Below, piece after piece: positions 6,217 through 19,522 of a stretch of 64,000 nt of DNA. Both the position numbers and the translations under genes were made by a program. Under the pieces are notes generated by a model that searched no databases, had not been told where the DNA came from, and saw nothing but the letters and a program-made list of their open reading frames with translations. This DNA is from Planctomycetaceae bacterium (GTDB lineage Bacteria; Planctomycetota; Planctomycetia; Planctomycetales; Planctomycetaceae), in NCBI GenBank assembly GCA_020426325.1, contig JAGQQG010000018.1, positions 1 to 64,000 of the forward strand, read 5' to 3'. How positions within the stretch are numbered: the stretch's first letter is position 1; each line of letters begins with the position of its first letter.

Positions 6217-8037
6217 ATGTCAGCTGATGGTGCAGTTCTCGACCGCATCAAAGTCGCCACAGAGCAGGGTGCACTTTCATCAGGAGCACAGGAAAACCTC
6301 ACACGCTGGCTGACAGAGCCGCAATATTCGGATTATGTCTCCTCCATCGTGAAACTGATTGACGCTGACGAATGGGGCACACTGGATCGACTCTTCTGGG
6401 AAGTCATCCCCTTCGGCACGGGAGGGCGACGCGGGCTCATGGCCGAGTTCGGGTCAGCGACCATCAACCGACGGACCATCGCCGAATCAGCACATGGATT
6501 GGCTGCCTACCTCAAATCACAGGACATCACCGACGGCAACGTCGTCATTGCATACGACACTCGCAATCGCTCACAGGAGTTCGCCCGGCTGACCGCGACC
6601 ACGATTGCCGCTCACGGGTTTCACGTCTTCCTCTTCGGGGAGTACCGGTCGACTCCTGAGCTGTCGTTCGCAGTGCGACATCTCAACTGTCACGCGGGAG
6701 TGATGATCACCGCCTCCCACAACCCGCCCAGCGACAACGGTTTCAAGGCCTACTGGTCGACCGGCGGGCAAGTGCTGCCGCCGCACGATAAGGGCATCAT
6801 CGACTGCGTTTACCAGGCCGGAGAGATTCCGACGATCGACTTCGACGAGGCCGTATCGAGTGGTCGCATCTCTCTCATCGGCGCGGCGGTCGACGATGCC
6901 TATCTCAGCACAGTCGTTGACATGAGTCTGTCCAACATGCGTAACTTACAGGGGCTCTACTCCCCTCTGCACGGTGTCGGAGAGACCGTCTGTTACGAGG
7001 TGTTGCAGCGAGCGGGTTTCGAGGGCATTGCCATTTACGAGCCACATCGACAGCCAAACGGCAACTTCCCGAACGTCGCCGATCACTTTCCCAATCCCGA
7101 ACGGACGGTCATCTTCGAGCCGTTGATCGCTCACGCCAAACAACACGGACAGGACGTGATTCTCGCCTCCGACCCCGATGCGGATCGGCTTGGAGTCTGC
7201 GTGAAGGGGAGCAATGGTGAATATGTCCATCTGACAGGCAATCAGATCGGCAGCCTGATCGCTGACTACATCCTGCGGAAGCGCGATGCGGCCGGGGAAC
7301 TGACGCCAGAGCACTTCGTCGTCGAAACGCTTGTGACCACTCCACTCATCGGAGCAGTCGCCAAATCACATGGGGTCCGTGTCATCGACGATCTGCTCGT
7401 CGGCTTCAAGTACATCGGCCAGACGATGGACGCCGAAGGACCGGACAAGTTTGTCTTCGGAGCGGAAGAGTCGCTCGGCTATCTCGCAGGCACCTATGCC
7501 CGCGACAAGGACGCGGGCATCGCTGCACTCTACCTGTCCGAGTGTGCAGCCGAACTGCGTCAGGGTGGCAAAACGCTGCTTGACCGGCTGGACGAACTCT
7601 ACGTCGAGCACGGCTACTTCTGGGAAGGGCAAACCTCCAAGGTCTGTGAAGGAGCTGAGGGGAGCAAGCAGATCGGACAGATCATCGAGGCCTTCCGCTC
7701 TGGCCCCCCGCAGGAGTTGGCCGGTCTGCCACTGGCATCGGTCCGCGACTTCGGCACCCACGAGGTCCGCTCACTCCCTGCCAACGTCAAGGCCGATGAT
7801 CTGCCCGAGCCGCAGGGCAACCTGTTGTTCTTCGAGACCGCGCCGACCGACGGCATCACCATCCACATCGCCGTCCGCCCCTCAGGCACCGAACCGAAGA
7901 TCAAGTTCTACATGTTCGCCAAGTCAGACGTATCCGGTGCCGAGCAGTTGATGGCTTGCAAGGTGTCGACGTCGACAAAGATGGATCGCGTTCGGGAGTC
8001 GTTGATGGCTTGGATCGACGGGGTACTTTCAAGTTGA
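6217..8037 (+). CDS. alpha-D-phosphohexomutase family (phosphoglucomutase/phosphomannomutase)
   Basis: Active-site phosphoserine loop TASHNPPSDNGFK, Mg-binding loop DPDADRLGV, sugar-binding GEESLG; ATG at 6217 after RBS AAAGGGAG. Confidence 0.85.
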   Translation: MSADGAVLDRIKVATEQGALSSGAQENLTRWLTEPQYSDYVSSIVKLIDADEWGTLDRLFWEVIPFGTGGRRGLMAEFGSATINRRTIAESAHGLAAYLKSQDITDGNVVIAYDTRNRSQEFARLTATTIAAHGFHVFLFGEYRSTPELSFAVRHLNCHAGVMITASHNPPSDNGFKAYWSTGGQVLPPHDKGIIDCVYQAGEIPTIDFDEAVSSGRISLIGAAVDDAYLSTVVDMSLSNMRNLQGLYSPLHGVGETVCYEVLQRAGFEGIAIYEPHRQPNGNFPNVADHFPNPERTVIFEPLIAHAKQHGQDVILASDPDADRLGVCVKGSNGEYVHLTGNQIGSLIADYILRKRDAAGELTPEHFVVETLVTTPLIGAVAKSHGVRVIDDLLVGFKYIGQTMDAEGPDKFVFGAEESLGYLAGTYARDKDAGIAALYLSECAAELRQGGKTLLDRLDELYVEHGYFWEGQTSKVCEGAEGSKQIGQIIEAFRSGPPQELAGLPLASVRDFGTHEVRSLPANVKADDLPEPQGNLLFFETAPTDGITIHIAVRPSGTEPKIKFYMFAKSDVSGAEQLMACKVSTSTKMDRVRESLMAWIDGVLSS

Positions 8038-8105
8038 TCTGAGAATCAGGCGAATACCACAAAATGATCAAGCTCTGCATTCGCTGAATTCGCAAGATTC
8101 GTGGT

Positions 8106-11100
8106 TCATTCCACGGTCGACTCGACATCTTCCTTCTTCTCGGCATCTTCCAGGCGCCGCAGAAGTTTGCCGTAGTCTTTGAGACATTGCTCAATCTGCT
8201 TGCCCAGGTTGTGCAGTTCGGCGCGTTGTTCGTCTGAGCGATCCAGGAGCGGTCGCAGCCAGCCTTCCATGAGTTCAAACTGATGCTCCAACACGTTGAG
8301 AACCGTGCGTGGAATGCGATTGACGACAGTGATTCGTTTCGTCTCAGGATCGCTGCTCATCGGTTCGAGCGGCGTTCGCTGGGCGAAGACGGCCGGATCA
8401 TCAGTAGGAATCATGGGCGACGCTGGCGGCTGAGCGGAACCAGCGAGCGCGGGCAACCCGTCCGGCCACTTCATCTCGATCGGCGGCACCTCCAGCGGCG
8501 GCATGTTGATGGGGCGGTCCGCCAGATGACTAATCTTCTCAACGCCATCGGTGAGCCGATGTGACAACTCCGCAAGATGGGTATTCAACCGCTCGGCCTC
8601 TTCGAGCATCCGCTCTTCACGCGCGCTGGCACCATCCTTCGTGGTGAGTTCGACGACACCGTGAGCCAGCGTCTTGCGGATGGATTCGAGTCCGTCCGCG
8701 AAGGTCGTCAGCGTGGCGATGACCTGTCCCGTCTTGTCATCACTGCCGATGCCCCGCAGTTTCACGTTCTGCTTGTACGTTCGCTTGATGTCATCCCAAC
8801 GCTCTCGATCGCTCTGCGATTGAATGCCCATCAGCTCTTTGAACTTGAGCATGTTCGCTTCGGTACCCGAGGTGAGCGTCTGCGCATCGTTCTGATAGCT
8901 GCTGACGATGAGCGTTTGTAACTCTTCGTCGTTCATCACCGGCAGCACCTTCTCCGCGATGCGATTCATGTTACGGTACGACCCCTGCAACAGAAACGGC
9001 GGCTCGGTCCGGTAGTCATCGTGCTGAGCGGCTGATTCGATGTACGCCCGGTTGACCTTGAGAACGACATCACGCACCCTCATGAGTTTCTGCATAACAG
9101 CGACGAACTCGTTGAGTTCTTCGAGCGCATAGGAGCCTTCAAGATCGATTCCCTCACCGGTCGCCTGTTCTCCCCGCAATGCCCTTTGGGCAATCTTGAT
9201 GACCGCGTAGACGTCTTTTTGCGACCGTGCCGCGAGTTTGGCAAGGATCGGATTCGAGGTGAGCGAGTTTTCGAGGTAACTCATCTCGAACGCGTCGGTG
9301 GAGTCGCCAATGATCTCGCCGAGGTTGTAGATGTCAGCCCGGTTGGCCAGCATGTCGGGGATCTGGAACTTCTCGCCGCTCTCCGTGTACGGGTTACCCG
9401 CCATCACGACGGCTACCTTGCGACCTCGGAAGTCGTATGTCTTCGCCTTCCCCTTGTAGACCCCCTCGACCTTGCGTTGGGCATCACACAGGCTGATGAA
9501 CTTCTGTAACAACTCGGTGTTGCAATGCTGAATGTCGTCGAGATAGATCATCACGTTGTCGCCCATCTCGAAGGCGAGGTTGAGCTTCTCGATCTCCTCA
9601 CGGGCTCCCGCATTAGGGGCAGCAGCCGGGTCGAGCGAAGTCACCTCATGTCCAATGGCCGGCCCGTTGATCTTCATGAAGATGATGCCCAGCCGATTGG
9701 CGATGTACTCCATCAGCGTCGTTTTGCCATAACCGGGCGGCGAGATGAGCAGCAGCAGCCCCTGACGATCGGTCCGCTTGTCGGCGCCGGCTGTGCCGAT
9801 TTGTTTCGCGAGGTTGTCGCCGATCAGTGGCAGATAAACCTGATCGATGAGACGGTTCCGCACGAAGGATGTGAGCACGCGTGGCTGAAACTCCGTCAGC
9901 TTCATCTCCTCGCGAGCCTCGTCGACGACACGGGTCTTGAGCTCGTGATACGAACGATACGCTGGCACTGTCAGCCGCTCAAAGCGTTCCAGCCGCTCCA
10001 TGAAACGGTTGAACTGCAAGTTGTACGTACCGCTATCAATGATCGGATGAGTGCCGACGAGATTCTTCAATGTGCACGACATGTCGGTCCCGATGACGGC
10101 ATCACGGTTGATGTCACCGGAGATCAACAAGGCCGCAACCTCGTCAACATGATCTCGCGCAGGCGAGCGGGGGGTGTTAACCCCCTGTCTGTTGACCTGA
10201 TTGCCTTCGTTCAATCCCGGTTCTTCTGACGTCTGTCCGTCTTCCGCGACAGGGGACTGACGTCCTCCGCTCGCCATGGTGACATACGCGCTCACCCAGT
10301 CACGGGCCAGTTCGAAGGCTGCATCCTGATTTCGCTGCACGGCCTTCAATGATTCTGAGAATCGTTCACTGGCACTGAGAGAACTGAGATGTTGATGAAA
10401 ACCGTCGTGCAGTTGAATAGCCGTCCTGGCAATAACGAAGATGTCTCCCGCAGTGCTCAGTTCATGGAACAAGTACGTCGCCGCCTCGTCGAGCAGAGAC
10501 TCGTCCGCGTCCTCGAAGAGACCGGACGTGGCGATGAACTCGCCCAGCATCTCTCGCAGTTCGCGGGTGTACTCCAACTGCTGAGCTGTACCGGGGAACA
10601 GCGTGGCGATTTGACCGAAGCCCGAAAGCTTGGAAGCCATCAGTTTCTTGTCAGCGACCCGTCCGAAGTGATGCCAGTAGACATTCGCAATCGCCCGGGC
10701 ACGGGACGAGTACCGCAACAATCCGCAAGTCGCATCGATATCAAGCAAAGCCCGCAGGATGATCGCCGCATCGTGATCGTGGACCCCCTTGGTGTAACCC
10801 TCGGAATAGCGAGGCCCCATGAACTTCTGGACAAGTGTCAACAATGGCGAGCGGGGGGTGTCAACCCCCTGGTTCTCGCGGTCGCTGCTTGGTGACGACT
10901 CAAGTCCGTCTCGCGTCAGCGAATCTCCCCCGACAGGGGACTGACGTCCCCCGCTCGCCTTGAGCATCTGATAGGCGAGATATTCGGCCCGATACACCTC
11001 GCGGTTTTCGCTGATGACCTCCATGGACCACACGTCGCGGGTGGCGTTGAGGATCTCGGACTCGATGACTTCGAAGAAATCGGTACCGGTGAGATGCAGG

Positions 11101-13751
11101 TGCAGGCGGTCATTCCGCAGGACGGTCGTCAGGTCGAGCACTTGCGTGTTGACGCTGAAACGGTGATTTCCAAAGCGGATGACCCCTTCGCCGTCCTCGT
11201 AGAGCTCCTGCCGGTCCTTGAGTTGCCGCACGGCGTCCTCACGGATCGTCTTCAGACGTGACTGCACGTCGTCGACTTTGACCGAGTCCCCCAGTTCACC
11301 GAGTTGGGCAATGATGTCGCGGACCTTTTCGATCATCAGGTCCGAGGCGAAATACCCGTGGATGTCGTTGATGTTGTCAAACGACTCGACACGCGTCTTG
11401 ACCCCCTTGAGGATGCGGTCGGCAGCCTGGGCGAGTGCGCTCGCCCGTTTGTTCCGCTTCTCGACAAGTTGCATCCGTCGCGATTCGAAGGCGGAGGCAA
11501 TCTCCTCGCGCTTGTCAGCCAGCTGGACGACAAACTCATCAAACTCTGCAAATTTGCCTTCCAGTTCCTCAACCTGCACCAGCAGTTTGGTGAGATACTC
11601 TTCACATTTCTCCGGCGTGTCGCAAACATCGAGATAGTTGACGACCGACTGATTGAGGAGCTTGAGTTGCGAGGAGAACTCAGCTGCCCCCTCGACGGAG
11701 GCGAGCTCCTGCATCTTCCGTTTCAGGCCCGCCCGGGCCGCGTTCACCTGCGAGAAGATGGCCGAGATGTTGTCGATGATCGTGGTGCGCTGGGTCGCGT
11801 CGTCGATCTTGAGATTGGAGACAATCTCGATCAGCATCTCCAACTCTGCGGCAGATGCGGCGACCTTTTCGTCGACGGCCTTGGCATCAGCGACCTTGCT
11901 CAGATGCTCAATTCCCGCCTGTTCCTGCTGAATGTGCTGTTCATAGGGCGCGAGCGCATCATCACGCAGCAGAAACTCAACGCAACGTTTGGATAACTCC
12001 TCTGTTGCCTGTGTGACTTCCTGTTCAAGTCCCTCGACCAACTCTGCGTCGATATATCGAAGGTCGCGCAGACCAATGATGTCGCCGCGGACTCGGCGCA
12101 GTGATGCGAGAGATTCCACAAACTCGTCGATCGTCTCGAACCGTTTTCGACCGACCGAGTTCAACAGCTCGCGTGTCTGACCGGTGACCCGCTGCGTCTG
12201 CTCGCTCGTGTTCTTGCGGACGCGGACGACTTTCTCGAATTCTTCGACGGCCGATGTGGCGGCGGCCTTGATCTGCGACAGCGGCTCGCCGAGATTGGCC
12301 GCGTCCTGGTGGTTGATCCAGAAGTAGCTGTCGAGAACGTCGGTCGCTTCCTTCACGAGATCGACGTACAGCCCCGCATAGGTGTCTTCCTTCTCGATCA
12401 ACCCCAGAATGAAGTGACACTCGGCCATGCCGCGGACGATGTCGCGGTTGCCGATCTTGTAGAGGTACGAGTCCGTGCTTTGGTGGGGGACGAAGTCTTC
12501 CCCGACGTACGGTGTTTGCCAGACCTGGATCTGGTGATGTTTCTGTGGCTGACTGTGAGCCTTGAACAACAGCATCTCACCCGCGTGAAACATCGTAAAC
12601 CCGCTGCACACAACAGGCGTGTCGACTGTCTGTGCGATGAGGTTGTATCCGAGCAGTACGTACTGTCCGGACTCCGGCTGATAGAACACGTACAACGTGT
12701 CCTCACCGTTGGGGGAGGCGACGCGGCGTTCGAACTTGAGGCCCTGCACATCCGAGTCGAACGTCTTCGCCTCGCCGCTTTGCAGGTAATAGCCGTTGGA
12801 GAAGATGAGCCCGTGGTCGTCCGGCAACAGCACACACGCATGCTCGATCGAGTCGACCCGCATCGCCTGCTGGATCTTCTCGTTGTAGACGATATACCGC
12901 CACTTCGTTTCCTGGTACGGCCGGATCTTGAGCAGGATCAGGTTGCCGACGATGGCGTAGTAGATCTCGGCATCGTCGAGCGTTTGGTCCGGGTCGTCAA
13001 CTTCCTCCGCATACAGCCCGCGACCGGAGTCCGTGTTGTCCTCGATCTTGATCGTGAGATCACCGCCGACTGTTTCGACGAACACACGGTCGTCGATCGA
13101 GATGTGAGGATAGGTGCCGTGACGGTGCATGTCACGTGTGGAGCGGGTCCAGTCGAATTCGTGCTGCGATGGGAAGCGGACCTCATGATCGGAACGGTTG
13201 TCCAAATAGCGCAGCGAGTCGTCCTCGATCAGCCATTTGAAGCTCTTGATGTCGGTCGCTGCTTTGCCGACCTGAAAGACCATGTAGAGGTAGACGCCCC
13301 GCACGAAGAACTTGGCAAACGTCGCCGATTTGTAGTAGCGGTAGATGTCCTGGAAATCTTTCTGAAATTGAGGGTCGCTGATGAGGTCGAGTCCCACGGG
13401 TTGTAACCCGTGGGCTTGTGCGGATTCATCGTTTCGCGCGAACTCGTAGACAGCAAAGACGTCTGCGATGCTGCGTTCAACCTTGAGGCCAAACTGCACG
13501 TTGTAGCCAAACAGGAAGCGGTTCCCGATCGACACCATGTCGCGCGGTACGCAATTGTTCTCAGTCGTAATCCGCTCAGTCGACAGGAGCTTGAGGTCGA
13601 TCGACCCGAACACATCCTTACGTGCTGTGTTGAGCGTCCCCAGCCGCTTTCGCAGCTCGTCCCCATGCCCCTTCAACCGATTGCGCAGAATCTCATACGT
13701 CCCGCTCTCCAACTGCGGCGCGGCTTCGAGTTGTTGGGGAGTTTCTGCCAT
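8106..13751 (-). CDS. Giant (1881 aa) AAA+ ATPase-domain protein, AAA_5/MoxR-dynein-like, with long coiled-coil regions; function unknown
   Basis: Walker A LLLISPPGYGKTTLMEY, Walker B VMIYLDDIQH, sensor region VVMAGNPYTESGEKFQIPDMLANRADIY typical of AAA_5; ~500 aa N-terminal domain, central and C-terminal heptad-rich E/K/Q segments; ATG at 13751; last gene of NfeD-flotillin operon. Confidence 0.8.
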   Translation of the reverse strand: MAETPQQLEAAPQLESGTYEILRNRLKGHGDELRKRLGTLNTARKDVFGSIDLKLLSTERITTENNCVPRDMVSIGNRFLFGYNVQFGLKVERSIADVFAVYEFARNDESAQAHGLQPVGLDLISDPQFQKDFQDIYRYYKSATFAKFFVRGVYLYMVFQVGKAATDIKSFKWLIEDDSLRYLDNRSDHEVRFPSQHEFDWTRSTRDMHRHGTYPHISIDDRVFVETVGGDLTIKIEDNTDSGRGLYAEEVDDPDQTLDDAEIYYAIVGNLILLKIRPYQETKWRYIVYNEKIQQAMRVDSIEHACVLLPDDHGLIFSNGYYLQSGEAKTFDSDVQGLKFERRVASPNGEDTLYVFYQPESGQYVLLGYNLIAQTVDTPVVCSGFTMFHAGEMLLFKAHSQPQKHHQIQVWQTPYVGEDFVPHQSTDSYLYKIGNRDIVRGMAECHFILGLIEKEDTYAGLYVDLVKEATDVLDSYFWINHQDAANLGEPLSQIKAAATSAVEEFEKVVRVRKNTSEQTQRVTGQTRELLNSVGRKRFETIDEFVESLASLRRVRGDIIGLRDLRYIDAELVEGLEQEVTQATEELSKRCVEFLLRDDALAPYEQHIQQEQAGIEHLSKVADAKAVDEKVAASAAELEMLIEIVSNLKIDDATQRTTIIDNISAIFSQVNAARAGLKRKMQELASVEGAAEFSSQLKLLNQSVVNYLDVCDTPEKCEEYLTKLLVQVEELEGKFAEFDEFVVQLADKREEIASAFESRRMQLVEKRNKRASALAQAADRILKGVKTRVESFDNINDIHGYFASDLMIEKVRDIIAQLGELGDSVKVDDVQSRLKTIREDAVRQLKDRQELYEDGEGVIRFGNHRFSVNTQVLDLTTVLRNDRLHLHLTGTDFFEVIESEILNATRDVWSMEVISENREVYRAEYLAYQMLKASGGRQSPVGGDSLTRDGLESSPSSDRENQGVDTPRSPLLTLVQKFMGPRYSEGYTKGVHDHDAAIILRALLDIDATCGLLRYSSRARAIANVYWHHFGRVADKKLMASKLSGFGQIATLFPGTAQQLEYTRELREMLGEFIATSGLFEDADESLLDEAATYLFHELSTAGDIFVIARTAIQLHDGFHQHLSSLSASERFSESLKAVQRNQDAAFELARDWVSAYVTMASGGRQSPVAEDGQTSEEPGLNEGNQVNRQGVNTPRSPARDHVDEVAALLISGDINRDAVIGTDMSCTLKNLVGTHPIIDSGTYNLQFNRFMERLERFERLTVPAYRSYHELKTRVVDEAREEMKLTEFQPRVLTSFVRNRLIDQVYLPLIGDNLAKQIGTAGADKRTDRQGLLLLISPPGYGKTTLMEYIANRLGIIFMKINGPAIGHEVTSLDPAAAPNAGAREEIEKLNLAFEMGDNVMIYLDDIQHCNTELLQKFISLCDAQRKVEGVYKGKAKTYDFRGRKVAVVMAGNPYTESGEKFQIPDMLANRADIYNLGEIIGDSTDAFEMSYLENSLTSNPILAKLAARSQKDVYAVIKIAQRALRGEQATGEGIDLEGSYALEELNEFVAVMQKLMRVRDVVLKVNRAYIESAAQHDDYRTEPPFLLQGSYRNMNRIAEKVLPVMNDEELQTLIVSSYQNDAQTLTSGTEANMLKFKELMGIQSQSDRERWDDIKRTYKQNVKLRGIGSDDKTGQVIATLTTFADGLESIRKTLAHGVVELTTKDGASAREERMLEEAERLNTHLAELSHRLTDGVEKISHLADRPINMPPLEVPPIEMKWPDGLPALAGSAQPPASPMIPTDDPAVFAQRTPLEPMSSDPETKRITVVNRIPRTVLNVLEHQFELMEGWLRPLLDRSDEQRAELHNLGKQIEQCLKDYGKLLRRLEDAEKKEDVESTVE
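10172..10275. repeat. TIR-bounded palindromic element copy 1 (104 bp), inserted in-frame in the giant AAA+ gene
   Basis: Starts GGCGAGCGGGGGGTGTTAACCCCCTG, ends GACAGGGGACTGACGTCCTCCGCTCGCC; the 9-bp termini GGCGAGCGG/CCGCTCGCC are perfect inverted repeats; it is translated on the minus strand as ASGGRQSPV...QGVNTPRSP. Confidence 0.75.
10846..10959. repeat. TIR-bounded palindromic element copy 2 (114 bp), inserted in-frame in the giant AAA+ gene
   Basis: Same 26-bp 5' end (GGCGAGCGGGGGGTGTCAACCCCCTG) and 29-bp 3' end (CGACAGGGGACTGACGTCCCCCGCTCGCC) as copy 1; central part diverged; translated as ASGGRQSPV...QGVDTPRSP; flanking protein sequence is unrelated between the two copies. Confidence 0.75.
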
Positions 13752-13797
13752 TGGTTGGGTTTAGTTCACCACAGAGGCACGGAGAACACTGATGGGA

Positions 13798-14283
13798 TTA
13801 GTCAAGGTTTTTCACTCGATTCCATTCGCGTTTGAGTATTGCCTGTGCTAAGTCAACTATTCTGTTCCCTAGTGAAATCAAGTCATTTTCAGGTTGTTCG
13901 TACTTTGATTCTGGATTCGCCATTGCTGAGCGGCTTGCTCTCTCCAACAACGCTCTAAGTTGTGCATGGTCTTCTTCGGATGGATTCAGCCTGAGAAGTA
14001 TCCTCGACAGGGTAGTTGCCAAGGAACGATGGAGATCGCCTTTGTTTTCCAGGATGACAGTTGAGGGAGTTGCGTTCTCCAGTGAGAGCTCTCCAGACAA
14101 CACGGCGAGGTTACCAAGATATTCCGAAAGGTCATCTCGAAGTGCATCAATCCAATGCTGTCGAAAAGCGGAGGTCGTAGTGGCTTTGATTTGCTTGCTT
14201 GAGACGTAGAGTGGGACGAGAGCTCCCACGACGAATGCGAGCAACATACCTACTGGTTGAATAATCGCGTCGATATCTTGCAT
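13798..14283 (-). CDS. Hypothetical small membrane-anchored protein (N-terminal TM helix)
   Basis: 161 aa; N-terminal hydrophobic helix VGMLLAFVVGALVPLYV; sits between the flotillin gene and the giant ATPase gene on the same strand with 40-46 bp gaps. Confidence 0.5.
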   Translation of the reverse strand: MQDIDAIIQPVGMLLAFVVGALVPLYVSSKQIKATTTSAFRQHWIDALRDDLSEYLGNLAVLSGELSLENATPSTVILENKGDLHRSLATTLSRILLRLNPSEEDHAQLRALLERASRSAMANPESKYEQPENDLISLGNRIVDLAQAILKREWNRVKNLD

Positions 14284-14323
14284 GTAATCCTCCGTGTCTC
14301 CGCGCCTCCGTGGTGAAACAAAC

Positions 14324-16459
14324 CTACGCCTTGTCCTCAGTCGCAGCGGCTAACCCAAGCGCGGCGACTTTCTTGTCGGACAGGCCCATCGATGTGACGG
14401 TTCTCTGCAGTTTCTTCAACCCGGCGGTGATCACGTCGTCGTCCGAGTCCAAAAGCATCTTGCCGAGCAAGGCTGCGACCGACAGGTCCTTGACGTCCTC
14501 GAAGCTCAGGCCGAAGTGATCGGTGAAGTGCTTGAGGTTCGCGCGGAAATCGCCGTTGCCGTTGCCTGCGAAGAACGTCTCCTTGACGTCGGTGAGGACG
14601 TGAGAGTTGTTGACCCAGCGGTCGACGGACTTGCCGGCTTTGATCGAGTCGACGATCTTGTCGAAGAACTCGGTCTCGCCACCAACGATGTCGATACGGG
14701 CCGTTTTGAGGGCCGCTCCGACGATCTCAGACTGCTCGGCAGCGATCTTCGTCTGAGCGTCGATGGCTGCGATCTCGATGTCGCGGTCCTTGTTGAGCTT
14801 GAGTTTGAACTCTTCGTGCTCGCGACCCACGCCATCGAAGATCTTCATCGCTTCGGCCTTCTGCTCGATGCCACGGGCTTCTGCATAGAACTTCTGCTCG
14901 ATGACAGCCGCTTCGGCGAGGCCTTCCTTCTCGATCGCATCGGCCTTGGCTTTGAGACCCTCGGCTTCGGCGACAAGTTTCTTCTGCGTGACGTTGGCCT
15001 GGGCAGTTCCTTCTTTCTCAACTGCATCGGCTCGAGCGATCAACACCTGAGCATCGGCCAGTCCCTTGGCAGCGTGTTCGGCCTGAGCCGCTTCGGCCAG
15101 CATCTTCTTGGCGGCCATCTCCTTCTGAGCAGCTGCCTCCAAGGCCTCGGCTTCGATGACCCGCTGTTTGGCAGCATGTTCGGCTGCCTGTTTCTGAGCC
15201 TCGGCTGCTTTGATCTCAGCAACAAGACGAGACTCGGCTTCCTCTTCGGCCTTGGTCACGGCGACTTGTTTGGACCGATCGGCGGTCGCGAATTCTTCGG
15301 TGTCGAGAATCCGCTGTTGTTCCTCGACGACTGACCGTTCGACGGCGACGCGTTCGCGGATGACATCCTGGATGTTCCGCTTTTCGACTTCGATCGCCTT
15401 TTCCTTGTCGATCGTCGCGAGACCGACAATGCGTTCCCGCTCGGTGACTTCGAGCATGCGGTCCTTCTCGACCCGCTCGCGTTCGACGGCGTCAGTCCGC
15501 TCTTTGTTTCGCTGGGCGACAATGAACTGCCGCAACTTGTTTTCTTCAGCGACGGACAATTCCTCTTCCGTCTTGATGCGTGCGGACTCTGCCTTGAGTC
15601 GTTCTTCCTGACCCACTTTTGCGGCTTCGGCCTGTTCACGGGCTGCGATCTCAGCGATCTCCCGCTTCTGTTTCTCAACCGCCTCGACCCGCTGTTTCTC
15701 AAGTTCCAGGATCGCCTCCTGAGCCTCGACGTCCTGCTTTTTGATGGTCTTCTCTTTTTCCCGCGTGATCTCGTTGGCCTGCACGTGCTCGCGAGCAGTA
15801 AGGTCTGTGATCTTCTTGATACCCTCAGCATCGAGGATATTCATCTGCGAGAGCATCTCGATGGGAGTTTGCTCAAGTAAATCAATTGCACAGTCGTTCA
15901 GGGTATAGCCATCAAGGTCCTTGCCAATCACTTTGAGAATCTCGTCCTTGAACTTGTCTCGCTCTTCATAGAGCTCAACAAAATCGAATCGCTTACCAAC
16001 AGTCTTGAGAGCTTCAGAGAACTTCGCATCGAACAGTTCAACGAGTGCCGCTTTCTCGGAAGCGCGGGCGCATCCGAGTGATTGTGCGACCTGCAGGATA
16101 TCCTCTTTCTTGTTATTCACTCGAACGAAGAACGCAACTTCGATATCGGCCCGGACGTTGTCTTTGCAGATGAGTCCTGAGGAGCCTTGACGTTTGATCT
16201 CGATCCGTTTGACCGAGAGGTCCATCATCTCAGCGCGGTGGAAAATGGGGAGAATCCAGATACCGTCACCACTGGCTGCGTGCAACCCCTTGTAGCCGGA
16301 TCTGACGATGGCTTCTTCAGGGCCAACCTTGCGGTAGAAACGGGAGAACATGACACCCGCAGCCAAAACGAAGGCTCCAAATATCACCAAAACACCCGCA
16401 CCGACCTCGAAGATCTGGGCGAACATCACGAAGCTGGAAAGATCAATGAGCTGAGACAC
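14324..16459 (-). CDS. Flotillin-like SPFH/band-7 protein (YqiK/FloT-like)
   Basis: 711 aa; N-terminal TM, SPFH domain, then long Ala/Glu-rich coiled coil with EA repeats (AEAEALEAAAQKEMAAKK...), C-terminal flotillin tail; start abuts the stop of the upstream NfeD-like gene. Confidence 0.9.
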   Translation of the reverse strand: MSQLIDLSSFVMFAQIFEVGAGVLVIFGAFVLAAGVMFSRFYRKVGPEEAIVRSGYKGLHAASGDGIWILPIFHRAEMMDLSVKRIEIKRQGSSGLICKDNVRADIEVAFFVRVNNKKEDILQVAQSLGCARASEKAALVELFDAKFSEALKTVGKRFDFVELYEERDKFKDEILKVIGKDLDGYTLNDCAIDLLEQTPIEMLSQMNILDAEGIKKITDLTAREHVQANEITREKEKTIKKQDVEAQEAILELEKQRVEAVEKQKREIAEIAAREQAEAAKVGQEERLKAESARIKTEEELSVAEENKLRQFIVAQRNKERTDAVERERVEKDRMLEVTERERIVGLATIDKEKAIEVEKRNIQDVIRERVAVERSVVEEQQRILDTEEFATADRSKQVAVTKAEEEAESRLVAEIKAAEAQKQAAEHAAKQRVIEAEALEAAAQKEMAAKKMLAEAAQAEHAAKGLADAQVLIARADAVEKEGTAQANVTQKKLVAEAEGLKAKADAIEKEGLAEAAVIEQKFYAEARGIEQKAEAMKIFDGVGREHEEFKLKLNKDRDIEIAAIDAQTKIAAEQSEIVGAALKTARIDIVGGETEFFDKIVDSIKAGKSVDRWVNNSHVLTDVKETFFAGNGNGDFRANLKHFTDHFGLSFEDVKDLSVAALLGKMLLDSDDDVITAGLKKLQRTVTSMGLSDKKVAALGLAAATEDKA

Positions 16460-16461
16460 GG

Positions 16462-17145
16462 TCAGGTCTCCTGTGGGACGCGTTGGATGATGAAGGTGTT
16501 TCGTTCGGGTTCGAAGTCGACGATTCGGACTGTCTCGCCCTTATGAGGAATATATTGTTCGTCCTCCGTGCGGACGTTGATGACGAGCGGCGAGGCATCT
16601 GTGGCGTAACTCGCCTGTCCATGTCTGGTGGTGACCTCGGAGGTCGTGACGATGCACGTCTGCCCCAGCAGGTCTTCCGATTTGTTGATTTCCGGCGTGA
16701 CGAAGAATCCTTTGAGTGGTTGTGTCATGAACTTGGCGAGAAACAGCGAGATCCCGCCATTGCGTGCGAGAGCTGTGACTCCTTCCACTGTTTCTACATT
16801 GCTCAAACCCCGGTCAAAGAGCATGGTCAATGCCCAGGTGCAGATGGCAAAAAACGTCAGCCACACCATTAACGGCACCTCACCGAGGTTGAAGAACTTC
16901 AACCCCATCATCCCGACACTCAGCGGCGAATGCTGCCCTCCGTCCAGATGCACGTCGGGACTGTGAACATCCGGTCCGTGAACATCGGGAAGATGCACAT
17001 CCGAGTGCAGATCGAAATGAAAATCAAAAGTATCGAGGTCGACTGCTCCGAGGATGACCATAGCCCAATAGGCCATCACGCAGCAGACCAGGGTCGAAGC
17101 CACGAGTGCGGGACCCTGAAAACAATCTGTGAGGAACTCAACCAT
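16462..17145 (-). CDS. NfeD-like/YqiJ-like inner membrane protein (OB-fold C-terminal domain)
   Basis: 227 aa; N-terminal TM helices, His/Asp-rich periplasmic repeat (DVHLPDVHGPDVHSPDVH), C-terminal beta-rich OB-like domain (GQTCIVTTSEVTT...GETVRIVDFE); immediately upstream of flotillin, as in the yqiJ-yqiK / yuaF-floT arrangement. Confidence 0.65.
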   Translation of the reverse strand: MVEFLTDCFQGPALVASTLVCCVMAYWAMVILGAVDLDTFDFHFDLHSDVHLPDVHGPDVHSPDVHLDGGQHSPLSVGMMGLKFFNLGEVPLMVWLTFFAICTWALTMLFDRGLSNVETVEGVTALARNGGISLFLAKFMTQPLKGFFVTPEINKSEDLLGQTCIVTTSEVTTRHGQASYATDASPLVINVRTEDEQYIPHKGETVRIVDFEPERNTFIIQRVPQET

Positions 17146-17527
17146 AGCTTGCCTCTTGGATCACGTTGCCAATATGCAACACGAATTCTCGTCTGCTCGT
17201 GAGGATAACGGGGGGCGGACCAGAAGGATCACGAAAATCTGGGGTGTGGGGGACAGGATTCCGGATTCTCCGGGTGGGCCTGCTGTGACACATCGGACGA
17301 TCGACGGGTCTGCCCGGATTGTCTCGCGTGTTTGGCGAGAATGCATCCCACGGGTTCGTCCGATGTTACGTAGAGAGGATGTGGTTGATTGAGTTCATGC
17401 TGCCTTGGTTCCCGACACGGAGCGTCGTGGCACACTGGTGGGCCGACTTGCATGCCTGCTTCGCTTCGAGAATGATTGCGTGACTTGGCTCGACTTCTTC
17501 CCCCCCCAGTGGACAGATGCTCCCATC

Positions 17528-19522
17528 GTGAACGCGAGACTCCTGCTTCTGCTCCTGATCGTGTGCTCGGTTGCTCAGTCAGCGACAGCGGGGGGAGTGA
17601 TCGACAAACGGCTGAAGCTGGTGGTCGTCCCGCGATTCGGAGCGATCCGAGGGCAGGCACCGGTGCCGCTGAGGTACTCGCTGAACTGGTCCGAGCCACA
17701 GTTGCTGGAAGGACACCTGCGCCTGAAATGGTTTGTGAACCAGACGCAGCTGGGAACCTACACGGCTCCAGAAGTGGCCTTATCCAGCGGGAGTGTGACG
17801 CGAAACGTGTTACTGCCTCCCGTGATCATGCCTTTCGAGAACGCCTTCTTCACCGTACAGGGGGAGTTCGTCACGGACTCTCAGATTTACGATCTCGACG
17901 TGCACGACGTGTTCATCCCGTTGGACTGGCGGCGAACGTTCGTGGCTGCCATCGGACGTCAGCCGCCTCTGCAAATGGAAGCGACCGAAAGCAGCGACCG
18001 AGATGTTGCTTCTGCCACGTTTACGGAAACACTGCGATTGGAGCGGTTCATTGAAGAGCCGATGACCCACCGCGAGTTGAGCACCATGGTGGTCGAAGTT
18101 GCTCCGCCGGATCTTCCTACGAATCCTCTGGAGTTCATGGGTTTCGATCTGCTGATGATTCCTGCGGAGAACGTCGACATCCTGTCGAACAGATTCTTGA
18201 GCGCAGCGACGATGTGGGTCAGAGCAGGGGGCAGCCTGTGCGTCTTCGTGGATACTCCGGTGAAGCAGGAGGTTGTCGATTTCCTCAATCACTTGACCGG
18301 GAACTCATACGTGAATGGGGCCTACCTGCGGACGGGCGAGGGACGATTGCTGCCTGTGGTCGGGGAAGCGACGGGGATTGACCAGCACCATTGCGAGTTG
18401 GGGCGACTGGTTGTTGCCCGTGGACCGGTCGACTACTCCCGTGAGGCATGGGAGCGGGCCATGTTGTTTCTGTGGAAAGTGAGGCAGCACAGAATTGATG
18501 AATGGGAACAAGGTGAGGAGTGGAAGGTCGCCTTTCCGCCCGATCATTACGATCAGGTCCAGGAATTGACCTTTCAGCCCAACAGGGAACTCGCGAACCC
18601 GTGGATGACCGAGTTGATGCTGCCGCAAACGATCCAGGGGATTCCGCTGGTCACGGTCTGCAGCATTCTGACGCTATTTCTGCTGATCATTGCGCCGGGA
18701 GATTACTTTCTGCTCGGCTGGTTGAGACGACGGCGATGGACCTGGGTGGTCTTTCCTGTCATGTCGCTGTTGTTCACACTACTGATGATCAAGCTCGCAG
18801 AAGCTCGGCTGGGGTCGGCCAATCTGGAGCGTTCGATCACGATCGTTGATCTCTCGTCGCAGGGGCGCCCGCTGCGATCAACAAAGATCGAGCTGCTGTA
18901 CCCGGCCTTCAGTCGTGAGGTGAGCGACGAGCAGGAGTCGGCCTGGATGGTGCCCATCGATCCGGACACGCAGGAATGCAACGCCTTTCGAGGCATGCTG
19001 GAGGACATGCCCAAGTATGAACCTCCGTGGGAATACACGGGTTCGCTTCCCGGCCGACACGTCGTGCAGCGGGACGTGCGTCAGTGGTCTCCGCGGTTGT
19101 CGCGAACCACGACGCTCGGTGAGACATCGCTGGTCGAGACCTCCCCGTTGGTCAACTTCAACTGGAGGAATGTCACGTGGGAGCAGTCGACTGATGAGCA
19201 GAATGTGGATGCACTGCGTCGATCGTTTCAGTCCCTCGATCCTCATGCGGACGTGACGGTCCTGGGAGACAGGCTCAATGCCCGACTGGATCAAAGACTT
19301 TCCATCCAGGAGCGCGTTTTCAACTTTGTGCAGTTCATCACTTACGTCGGCGACTCTCACCTGTTTGATCTGTTGTCACAGGTCTCTCCGACAGCGGCCG
19401 GTCACTGGGATGACCTGGCACTCATGGATTGGGGAGGAAAGCAACGAGTCTTCCTCGCGATCACGGAACCGCGTGAAGGGCATTTTGTCGTGTACCGCAA
19501 ACTCCTGACAAAGGGAGAGTGA
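17528..19522 (+). CDS. Hypothetical secreted/membrane protein co-transcribed with ABC transporter (ORF track start 17405 is TTG; GTG 17528 gives a signal peptide)
   Basis: From GTG 17528 the N-terminus reads (M)NARLLLLLLIVCSVAQSATA, a typical signal peptide; internal TM hairpin LVTVCSILTLFLLIIAPGDYFLLGWLRRRRWTWVVFPVMSLLFTLLMIKLA; stop overlaps the ABC ATPase start. Confidence 0.55.
   Translation: MNARLLLLLLIVCSVAQSATAGGVIDKRLKLVVVPRFGAIRGQAPVPLRYSLNWSEPQLLEGHLRLKWFVNQTQLGTYTAPEVALSSGSVTRNVLLPPVIMPFENAFFTVQGEFVTDSQIYDLDVHDVFIPLDWRRTFVAAIGRQPPLQMEATESSDRDVASATFTETLRLERFIEEPMTHRELSTMVVEVAPPDLPTNPLEFMGFDLLMIPAENVDILSNRFLSAATMWVRAGGSLCVFVDTPVKQEVVDFLNHLTGNSYVNGAYLRTGEGRLLPVVGEATGIDQHHCELGRLVVARGPVDYSREAWERAMLFLWKVRQHRIDEWEQGEEWKVAFPPDHYDQVQELTFQPNRELANPWMTELMLPQTIQGIPLVTVCSILTLFLLIIAPGDYFLLGWLRRRRWTWVVFPVMSLLFTLLMIKLAEARLGSANLERSITIVDLSSQGRPLRSTKIELLYPAFSREVSDEQESAWMVPIDPDTQECNAFRGMLEDMPKYEPPWEYTGSLPGRHVVQRDVRQWSPRLSRTTTLGETSLVETSPLVNFNWRNVTWEQSTDEQNVDALRRSFQSLDPHADVTVLGDRLNARLDQRLSIQERVFNFVQFITYVGDSHLFDLLSQVSPTAAGHWDDLALMDWGGKQRVFLAITEPREGHFVVYRKLLTKGE

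Follow-up and report, generated by a model that had tools for sequence, protein, structure and literature searches.

Comparative genomics by Ravi et al. 2024 (mSystems, PMC11237479) described a gene neighbourhood that combines a Band-7/flotillin protein, a YqiJ/YuaF-type protein with three transmembrane (TM) segments and an ATPase built from a beta-propeller, a coiled coil and an AAA+ module. The trio was found joined to a CesT/Tir-PspA dyad, for example in Dokdonia donghaensis (ANH61663.1), and abbreviated operons without the dyad were reported to be more widely distributed. The authors proposed that it acts in sub-membrane assembly and membrane dynamics, and their description is computational only. 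Here, we analysed a stretch of 64,000 nt from a Planctomycetaceae bacterium (contig JAGQQG010000018.1; this whole stretch is called the window), in which a minus-strand locus encodes the three core components in the same gene order and with the same architecture of domains. The window differs from the published operon in lacking the CesT/Tir-PspA dyad, and the locus therefore corresponds to the abbreviated form; it also differs in carrying an orphan TM gene between the flotillin and ATPase genes. We lean, if only slightly, towards reading the locus as a PspA-less version of a conserved module whose ATPase remodels flotillin/PspA assemblies at the inner membrane under envelope stress.

Several better-known systems resemble parts of this locus. 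HflK/HflC is an SPFH-family scaffold that is functionally coupled to an AAA+ machine, FtsH, at the inner membrane. FtsH, a membrane-anchored member of the classical AAA clade, carries a protease domain, and HflK/C face the periplasm, whereas the window ATPase is soluble, MoxR-like and free of a protease domain, and the SPFH domain encoded beside it is predicted to be cytoplasmic. The YqiJ-YqiK pair of E. coli, the YuaF-FloT pair of B. subtilis and the QmcA-YbbJ pair share with the window an NfeD-family gene immediately upstream of the SPFH/flotillin gene. We know of no giant ATPase adjacent to any of these pairs. The window flotillin also differs from that of YuaF-FloT and the other pairs in its greater length (711 aa) and is not a FloT equivalog (19 bits versus a cutoff of 700). 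Structurally, the AAA+ core of the window ATPase is matched best by the MoxR-family proteins NorQ, CbbQ and RavA, and AAA_5 scores above its cutoff. As a rule, the MoxR ATPases that have been characterised act together with VWA-domain partners. A conceptual likeness exists to Vps4 acting on ESCRT-III and to the PspF-type and other AAA+ partners of PspA, in which an AAA+ protein remodels a membrane-bound polymer; in parallel, PspA is co-encoded in the Bacteroidota versions of the module.

The locus consists of the following features, with positions given in the window and residues numbered on the window proteins.

Gene 1, 16462-17145, minus strand: 227 aa; YqiJ/YuaF-type short NfeD membrane protein.
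Gene 2, 14324-16459, minus strand: 711 aa, GTG start; long flotillin-type SPFH protein.
Gene 3, 13798-14283, minus strand: 161 aa; orphan, single-TM protein in a variable slot.
Gene 4, 8106-13751, minus strand: 1881 aa; soluble ATPase with beta-propeller, coiled-coil stalk and AAA+ module.
Upstream of gene 1, 17146-17404, no strand: 259-bp divergent intergenic region; presumed operon promoter region.

An initial annotation made from the letters alone had described these four minus-strand open reading frames, and the layout was confirmed, with gaps of 2, 40 and 46 bp between genes 1/2, 2/3 and 3/4, respectively. Database gene calls on an identical sequence (GCA_041398945.1, JAWKTU010000028.1) agree with the reading frames, the flotillin being called at 710 instead of 711 aa. 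A consensus scan of the minus-strand gaps revealed neither a sigma-70-like promoter nor an intrinsic-terminator-like site. The same annotation had held that a promoter or terminator between 14284 and 13751 would speak against its proposal. Rfam gave zero matches within 7800-17600. The operon promoter is presumed to lie in 17146-17404; no sigma-70 match was obtained there with the consensus scan, whose coverage does not extend to planctomycete promoters.

Relatives of the ATPase were then sought in one genome per GTDB species. At least 567 species encode one, and the best 80 loci were kept (36 from Bacteroidota, 18 from Planctomycetota, 14 from Verrucomicrobiota, 5 from Clostridia, 4 from Desulfobacterota, and 1 each from Kiritimatiellota, Omnitrophota and an unclassified lineage). 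Linkage was counted in 62 loci, those whose upstream sequence extends for at least 3.5 kb. A flotillin homologue (36-67% identity) lies directly upstream of the ATPase gene on the same strand in 58 of them (94%), spanning seven phyla, and an NfeD-like gene is also present upstream on the same strand in 55. The median gap between flotillin and ATPase genes is 128 bp. Genes 1, 2 and 4 lie together far more often than chance would allow, and their adjacency reproduces the same-strand arrangement of the operon described by Ravi et al. Downstream of the ATPase, no conserved gene was found among the related loci, and the flanking genes are housekeeping genes (ABC transporter, phosphoglucomutase, NUDIX) that differ between genomes. 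Genes for PspA_IM30, CesT_Tir_1 and an XRE-type helix-turn-helix (HTH) regulator precede the trio in 18-20 of the Bacteroidota loci. Bacteroidota relatives of the window ATPase thus carry the PspA, CesT/Tir and HTH-regulator extension of the published operon, an association with PspA that was observed in this one phylum.

The initial annotation had proposed conservation of the flotillin-ATPase linkage in related genomes as the test of its own idea, and the linkage passed this test overwhelmingly (58/62). Its statement that the arrangement is not a standard one did not survive, since the arrangement is widespread, occurring in at least 567 GTDB species, and Ravi et al. 2024 (PMC11237479) had already reported it. 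The window is a further planctomycete instance of this published linkage.

We then examined the ATPase. Gene 4 was modelled by AlphaFold2 in two parts, residues 1-860 (predicted local distance difference test, pLDDT, 82.5) and residues 861-1881 (pLDDT 75.5), and three regions were delimited.

Beta-propeller of gene 4, 12516-13592, minus strand: residues ~54-412, the DUF3686 core, preceded by a helix at residues 16-48.
Helical coiled-coil stalk of gene 4, 11196-12467, minus strand: residues ~429-852 (~420 residues), including DUF7902 at 598-682.
AAA+ module of gene 4, 9162-9884, minus strand: residues ~1290-1530, with Walker A at G1340-T1345, Walker B at D1405-D1406, sensor-1 at N1453 and the Arg finger at R1471.

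Pfam recognised DUF3686 (E=3.7e-197, residues 32-477), DUF7902 (1.1e-27, residues 598-682), and AAA and AAA_5 (residues 1333-1458). Hydropathy gave no TM segment, which marks gene 4 as a soluble ATPase encoded beside two membrane proteins. The propeller region is modelled with pLDDT mostly of 80-95 and contains about seven four-stranded blades as assigned by DSSP. Searched against the PDB with Foldseek, it retrieved WD40 and other propellers (DCAF1, CyRPA, the clathrin terminal domain) at a probability of ~1.0. The stalk is made of long helices, the longest of 58 residues, with pLDDT of ~80-90. The second model comprises, in order, a small beta unit, a helical middle domain, the AAA+ alpha/beta core with its lid, and a helical extension, followed by a disordered Pro-rich linker (1746-1812) and a C-terminal helix. 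No informative structural neighbour was found for the helical middle domain (~921-1160) or the C-terminal extension, and profile searches against the PDB found no solved structure related to gene 4 by sequence beyond the Walker A region. As judged by AlphaFold2, Foldseek and Pfam together, gene 4 has the propeller, coiled coil and AAA+ module of the published operon. The earlier description of this protein as a coiled-coil AAA_5-type ATPase was correct in what it named (AAA_5 scores 26.5-30.1 bits versus a cutoff of 22, with NorQ/CbbQ folds) and had overlooked the DUF3686 propeller.

At least 6698 homologues of gene 4 were found. An alignment of 75 full-length ATPases shows identity of at least 97% at 248 positions, including Walker A (G1340-T1345), D1405, D1406, N1453 and R1471, so the ATPase motifs are intact. 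Column identity in the AAA block is 80-88% across phyla, and gene 4 shares 46-59% identity over ~1700 aa with homologues across phyla. An exhaustive search with the propeller domain gave only 770 clusters at 50% identity; the full-length members are all ~1600-1900 aa long and carry the domain always at the N-terminus. By these alignments, the propeller-ATPase family is compact and slowly evolving, with a single architecture.

Two further observations concern the ATPase. The window protein is ~54% identical to Bacteroidota homologues and about as similar to Pirellulaceae of its own phylum (~47-53%), which would reflect either very slow evolution or transfer between phyla together with the flotillin gene. 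The tail beyond residue ~1720 (8106-8592, residues ~1720-1881), consisting of the Pro-rich disordered linker and a helix of ~65 residues, is found in the longest homologues only, chiefly those of Planctomycetota and a few of Desulfobacterota. It is absent from the versions of Bacteroidota, Verrucomicrobiota and Clostridia, which are ~1650-1700 aa long.

Databases, NCBI and Pfam among them, name proteins of this family 'DNA repair ATPase' (the NCBI name) or 'ATPase involved in DNA repair'. On that account gene 4 would act in DNA repair and its adjacency to a flotillin would be functionally irrelevant, and a weak similarity to RuvB_N and the RuvB P-loop agrees with it. This similarity is limited to ~50 residues around Walker A, and the name derives from it. 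Pfam scans detected no DNA-binding or nuclease domain in gene 4, and the best folds are MoxR ATPases of the chaperone type. Moreover, the gene is linked to those of two membrane proteins in 94% of loci. The literature does not help the name either: our search on DUF3686 returned no paper that mentions it, and other searches returned only Ravi et al. 2024 as relevant. We consider a DNA-repair function highly improbable.

A closer rival arises from the AAA+ module itself. Walker A, Walker B, sensor 1 and the Arg finger are all present and AAA_5 is above its cutoff, as expected of a MoxR/AAA_5 core, and a structure search placed the MoxR ATPases NorQ and CbbQ nearest to the module. Both are maturation factors, so gene 4 could act as a chaperone in the manner of MoxR proteins, maturing a membrane client held in a flotillin cage or inserting it, instead of remodelling the scaffold. 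The motif NPYTESGEKFQIPDMLANRA of gene 4 resembles the sensor-1/Arg-finger block of MoxR proteins, which adds to this side. The FloA-NfeD system of S. aureus has been reported to stabilise unfolded proteins (cited in PMC13086221), and we count this in the same direction. Against it, the neighbourhood holds neither a VWA/MIDAS partner nor a conserved client gene, and a propeller on a long stalk is foreign to known MoxR chaperones. We regard a chaperone role as rather unlikely, though it stays a close rival to remodelling of the scaffold.

Gene 2 initially escaped identification. The full-length protein gave no Pfam match, and NCBIfam gave no usable identity. When residues 1-240 were scanned alone, Pfam Band_7 was found at E=5.3e-13 (49.8 bits), covering residues 44-187. 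The full-length scan thus failed because of coiled-coil composition bias, the long E/A-rich coiled coil evidently triggering the HMMER bias filter. Band_7 matches 4 of 28 orthologues, and the family profile retrieved the SPFH protein QmcA (8z5g) at E=9.5e-5. The protein is organised as a TM anchor (residues 19-37), the SPFH domain (44-187), a coiled coil (~231-545; 315 residues, 39% Glu+Ala) and a C-terminal globular region. The Band_7 domain, the anchor and the coiled coil together make gene 2 the flotillin of the published operon, and the flotillin identity assigned at first sight is upheld by the Band_7 match and the Glu/Ala-rich coiled coil. Because the single TM segment is followed by the basic residues 'SRFYRK', the positive-inside rule would place the SPFH domain and the coiled coil in the cytoplasm. 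The protein is not a FloT equivalog, as NCBIfam NF058507 scored 19.2 bits versus a cutoff of 700 with a match in the coiled coil only, and by this comparison gene 2 is assigned to an SPFH subfamily distinct from FloT. Flotillins of this type also lack a Pfam match in the precomputed annotations of three genomes (L081, L085 and L206), and the subfamily is probably under-annotated.

Gene 1 was identified mainly through its orthologues. The window protein itself gave a weak YqiJ_N match (E=0.0055, under the cutoff). Among 25 orthologues from related loci, YqiJ_N was matched by 12 and the NfeD C-terminal domain by 4, and the family profile led to the PDB entry 2k14 (B. subtilis YuaF) at E=0.12. 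These matches support the NfeD/YqiJ-like identity first proposed for gene 1 and give the locus the YqiJ/YuaF-type multi-TM partner of the published operon. By hydropathy, the protein has N-terminal hydrophobic/TM segments, an Asp/His-rich loop (residues 35-75, 'PDVHGPDVHSPDVH') and a C-terminal OB-like NfeD domain. Encoded at 16921-17043, this Asp- and His-rich loop follows the first TM segment and includes repeats (DLDTFDFHFDLHSDVHLPDVHGPDVHSPDVHLDGGQH); at the same place, the consensus of the NfeD-like family has an acidic D-x-D-x run. The loop may bind metal or other cations.

In contrast to the conserved trio, homologues of gene 3 are missing from all 80 related loci. A search of 5.8 billion proteins returned 2 matches, the protein itself and one at 33% identity. 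Its GC content is 47.5% and its third-position GC content (GC3) 46.9%, compared with 55-58% and 66-74% for the neighbouring genes. In the closest relative (ATPase identity 83%), a PDDEXK_3 gene occupies the gene 3 position, and in Symmachiella dynata the slot has no gene. The absence from 80 loci, the PDDEXK_3 gene in the closest relative, the low GC content and the orphan status lead us to classify gene 3, on sequence grounds, as a lineage-specific insert in a permissive slot, outside the conserved module. The insertion is probably recent. Gene 3 has a good Shine-Dalgarno motif, GGAGGA, 4 nt ahead of its ATG, and is probably expressed. It would be an orphan of foreign origin that entered a permissive slot between two genes and is co-transcribed by position only. 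As gene 3 lacks conservation, three genes and not four make up the conserved unit, and the "four-gene operon" of the initial annotation has to be revised accordingly.

Two other interpretations of gene 3 were rejected. As a component of the system, it would be expected elsewhere, and it has no homologue in 80 loci and essentially none in 5.8 billion proteins. As a conserved fourth gene that has diverged, it would have relatives in the same position, and the slot genes of different loci do not cluster with one another.

The slot between the flotillin and ATPase genes (13752-14323 in the window) is a recurrent landing site, with a gap of more than 300 bp in 29 of 69 loci. Filled slots include L010, L021, L025, L029, L033, L037, L040, L053, L064, L065, L085 and others. 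Their contents are mutually unrelated small genes, namely DUF559, PDDEXK_3, IS200-like Y1_Tnp, ParE, AbiEii, lipoproteins and small TM proteins. In about half of the loci with slot genes, membrane or secreted proteins are encoded there.

Toxin-like or selfish genes such as ParE, AbiEii, DUF559, PDDEXK_3 and the IS200-like Y1_Tnp in this slot raise the question of an anti-phage or conflict system, in which the giant ATPase would sense or act and the membrane proteins would execute abortive infection. The size of the ATPase and its protein-interaction domains are in keeping with such a role, as are a PLD-family gene near 5 loci and a weak PADLOC match to LmuB in the coiled-coil region (E=2.7e-4). 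None of the four proteins has a real PADLOC match. The neighbours are housekeeping genes that differ between genomes, and the slot genes are mutually unrelated and absent in most loci. Furthermore, the extreme conservation across phyla (46-59% identity over ~1700 aa, 248 near-invariant positions) is unlike that of fast-evolving defence genes. A defence function therefore appears improbable, and the suggestion of a defence module in the initial annotation finds no support in PADLOC or gene context. Of that interpretation as a whole, the domain identities and the conservation of the linkage stand, and the non-standard arrangement, the four-gene unit and the defence role do not.

We return to remodelling at the inner membrane as the preferred reading. 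It is drawn from the synteny (58/62 and 55/62), the domain identities, the conserved catalytic motifs, the PspA/CesT/HTH extension in Bacteroidota and the match to the operon of Ravi et al. By analogy with QmcA-YbbJ, HflK/C and flotillin-1/2, the flotillin and the NfeD protein would build a large cage- or ring-shaped oligomer on the cytoplasmic side of the inner membrane (the QmcA-YbbJ and other SPFH structures on which the cage analogy is based are cited in PMC13086221). The ATPase may oligomerise through its AAA+ module and dock on this scaffold through the propeller and stalk. ATP hydrolysis would then assemble or disassemble the flotillin scaffold or extract clients from it. Where PspA is co-encoded, the ATPase may act on polymers of the PspA/ESCRT-III type. 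The outcome could be an envelope-stress or membrane-maintenance response, comparable to that of FtsH inside HflK/C or Vps4 on ESCRT-III.

Several points weigh against this reading. That the ATPase physically contacts the flotillin is only inferred, and our literature searches found no experiment on any member of the module. The Walker B motif of gene 4 is D-D, not D-E. Four of the 62 loci (L019, L030, L038 and L074) have no flotillin gene nearby, and no alternative conserved partner was found in them. When the Bacteroidota PspA, CesT and HTH proteins were searched by tblastn against the 64-kb window, no match was obtained. There is also no further conserved neighbour family, and no VWA domain is seen among the Pfam-annotated neighbours of three loci.

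A more far-reaching version, which we put forward only tentatively and hold to be doubtful, is that the trio is a self-contained, PspA-independent membrane-remodelling machine. A MoxR-like ring with a propeller on a stalk would mechanically assemble, disassemble or move flotillin cages, and the slot genes, possibly non-random and in about half of the cases coding for small membrane proteins or lipoproteins, could be lineage-specific clients or adaptors of the cages. If true, an SPFH scaffold would have, for the first time, a dedicated motor driven by ATP, and the finding would carry greater weight only in the case that the ATPase proves to be such a dedicated motor for flotillin scaffolds.

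The window adds a confirmed planctomycete instance of the module, quantitative synteny figures and domain-level models. Two annotations are corrected: there is no support for the name 'DNA repair ATPase', and full-length Pfam scans overlook the flotillin gene. A dedicated and very strongly conserved ATPase partner, present in hundreds of species of at least 7 phyla, would give a direct experimental handle on the assembly, turnover and use of SPFH scaffolds. Cultured hosts of the module include Symmachiella dynata, Hymenobacter, Leeuwenhoekiella and a Flavobacterium.

The ATPase gene also contains two copies of a palindromic repeat, both in frame.

Palindromic repeat copy 1, 10846-10962, minus strand: encodes residues ~931-969, a disordered loop.
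Palindromic repeat copy 2, 10162-10278, minus strand: encodes residues ~1159-1197, a disordered loop.

Each copy is ~117 nt long and bounded by terminal inverted repeats (GGCGAGCGGGGGACGTCAGTCCCCTG ... CAGGGGGTTGACACCCCCCGCTCGCC). The encoded peptide reads 'ASGGRQSPV...QGV(D/N)TPRSP', and the loops are modelled with pLDDT below 50. The RNA of copy 1 folds at -71 kcal/mol (z=-6.3). Among close homologues, the window protein alone has copy 1; copy 2 is common to the homologues P0001-P0003 (83-90% identical) and decayed in P0004. Exact copies of the element's 26-nt arm are present in at least 120 metagenome contigs, often arranged as tight hairpin pairs immediately past stop codons. The element looks like a repetitive extragenic palindrome (REP) or a miniature inverted-repeat transposable element (MITE) that is able to insert in frame, and it is reminiscent of the Rickettsia palindromic elements.

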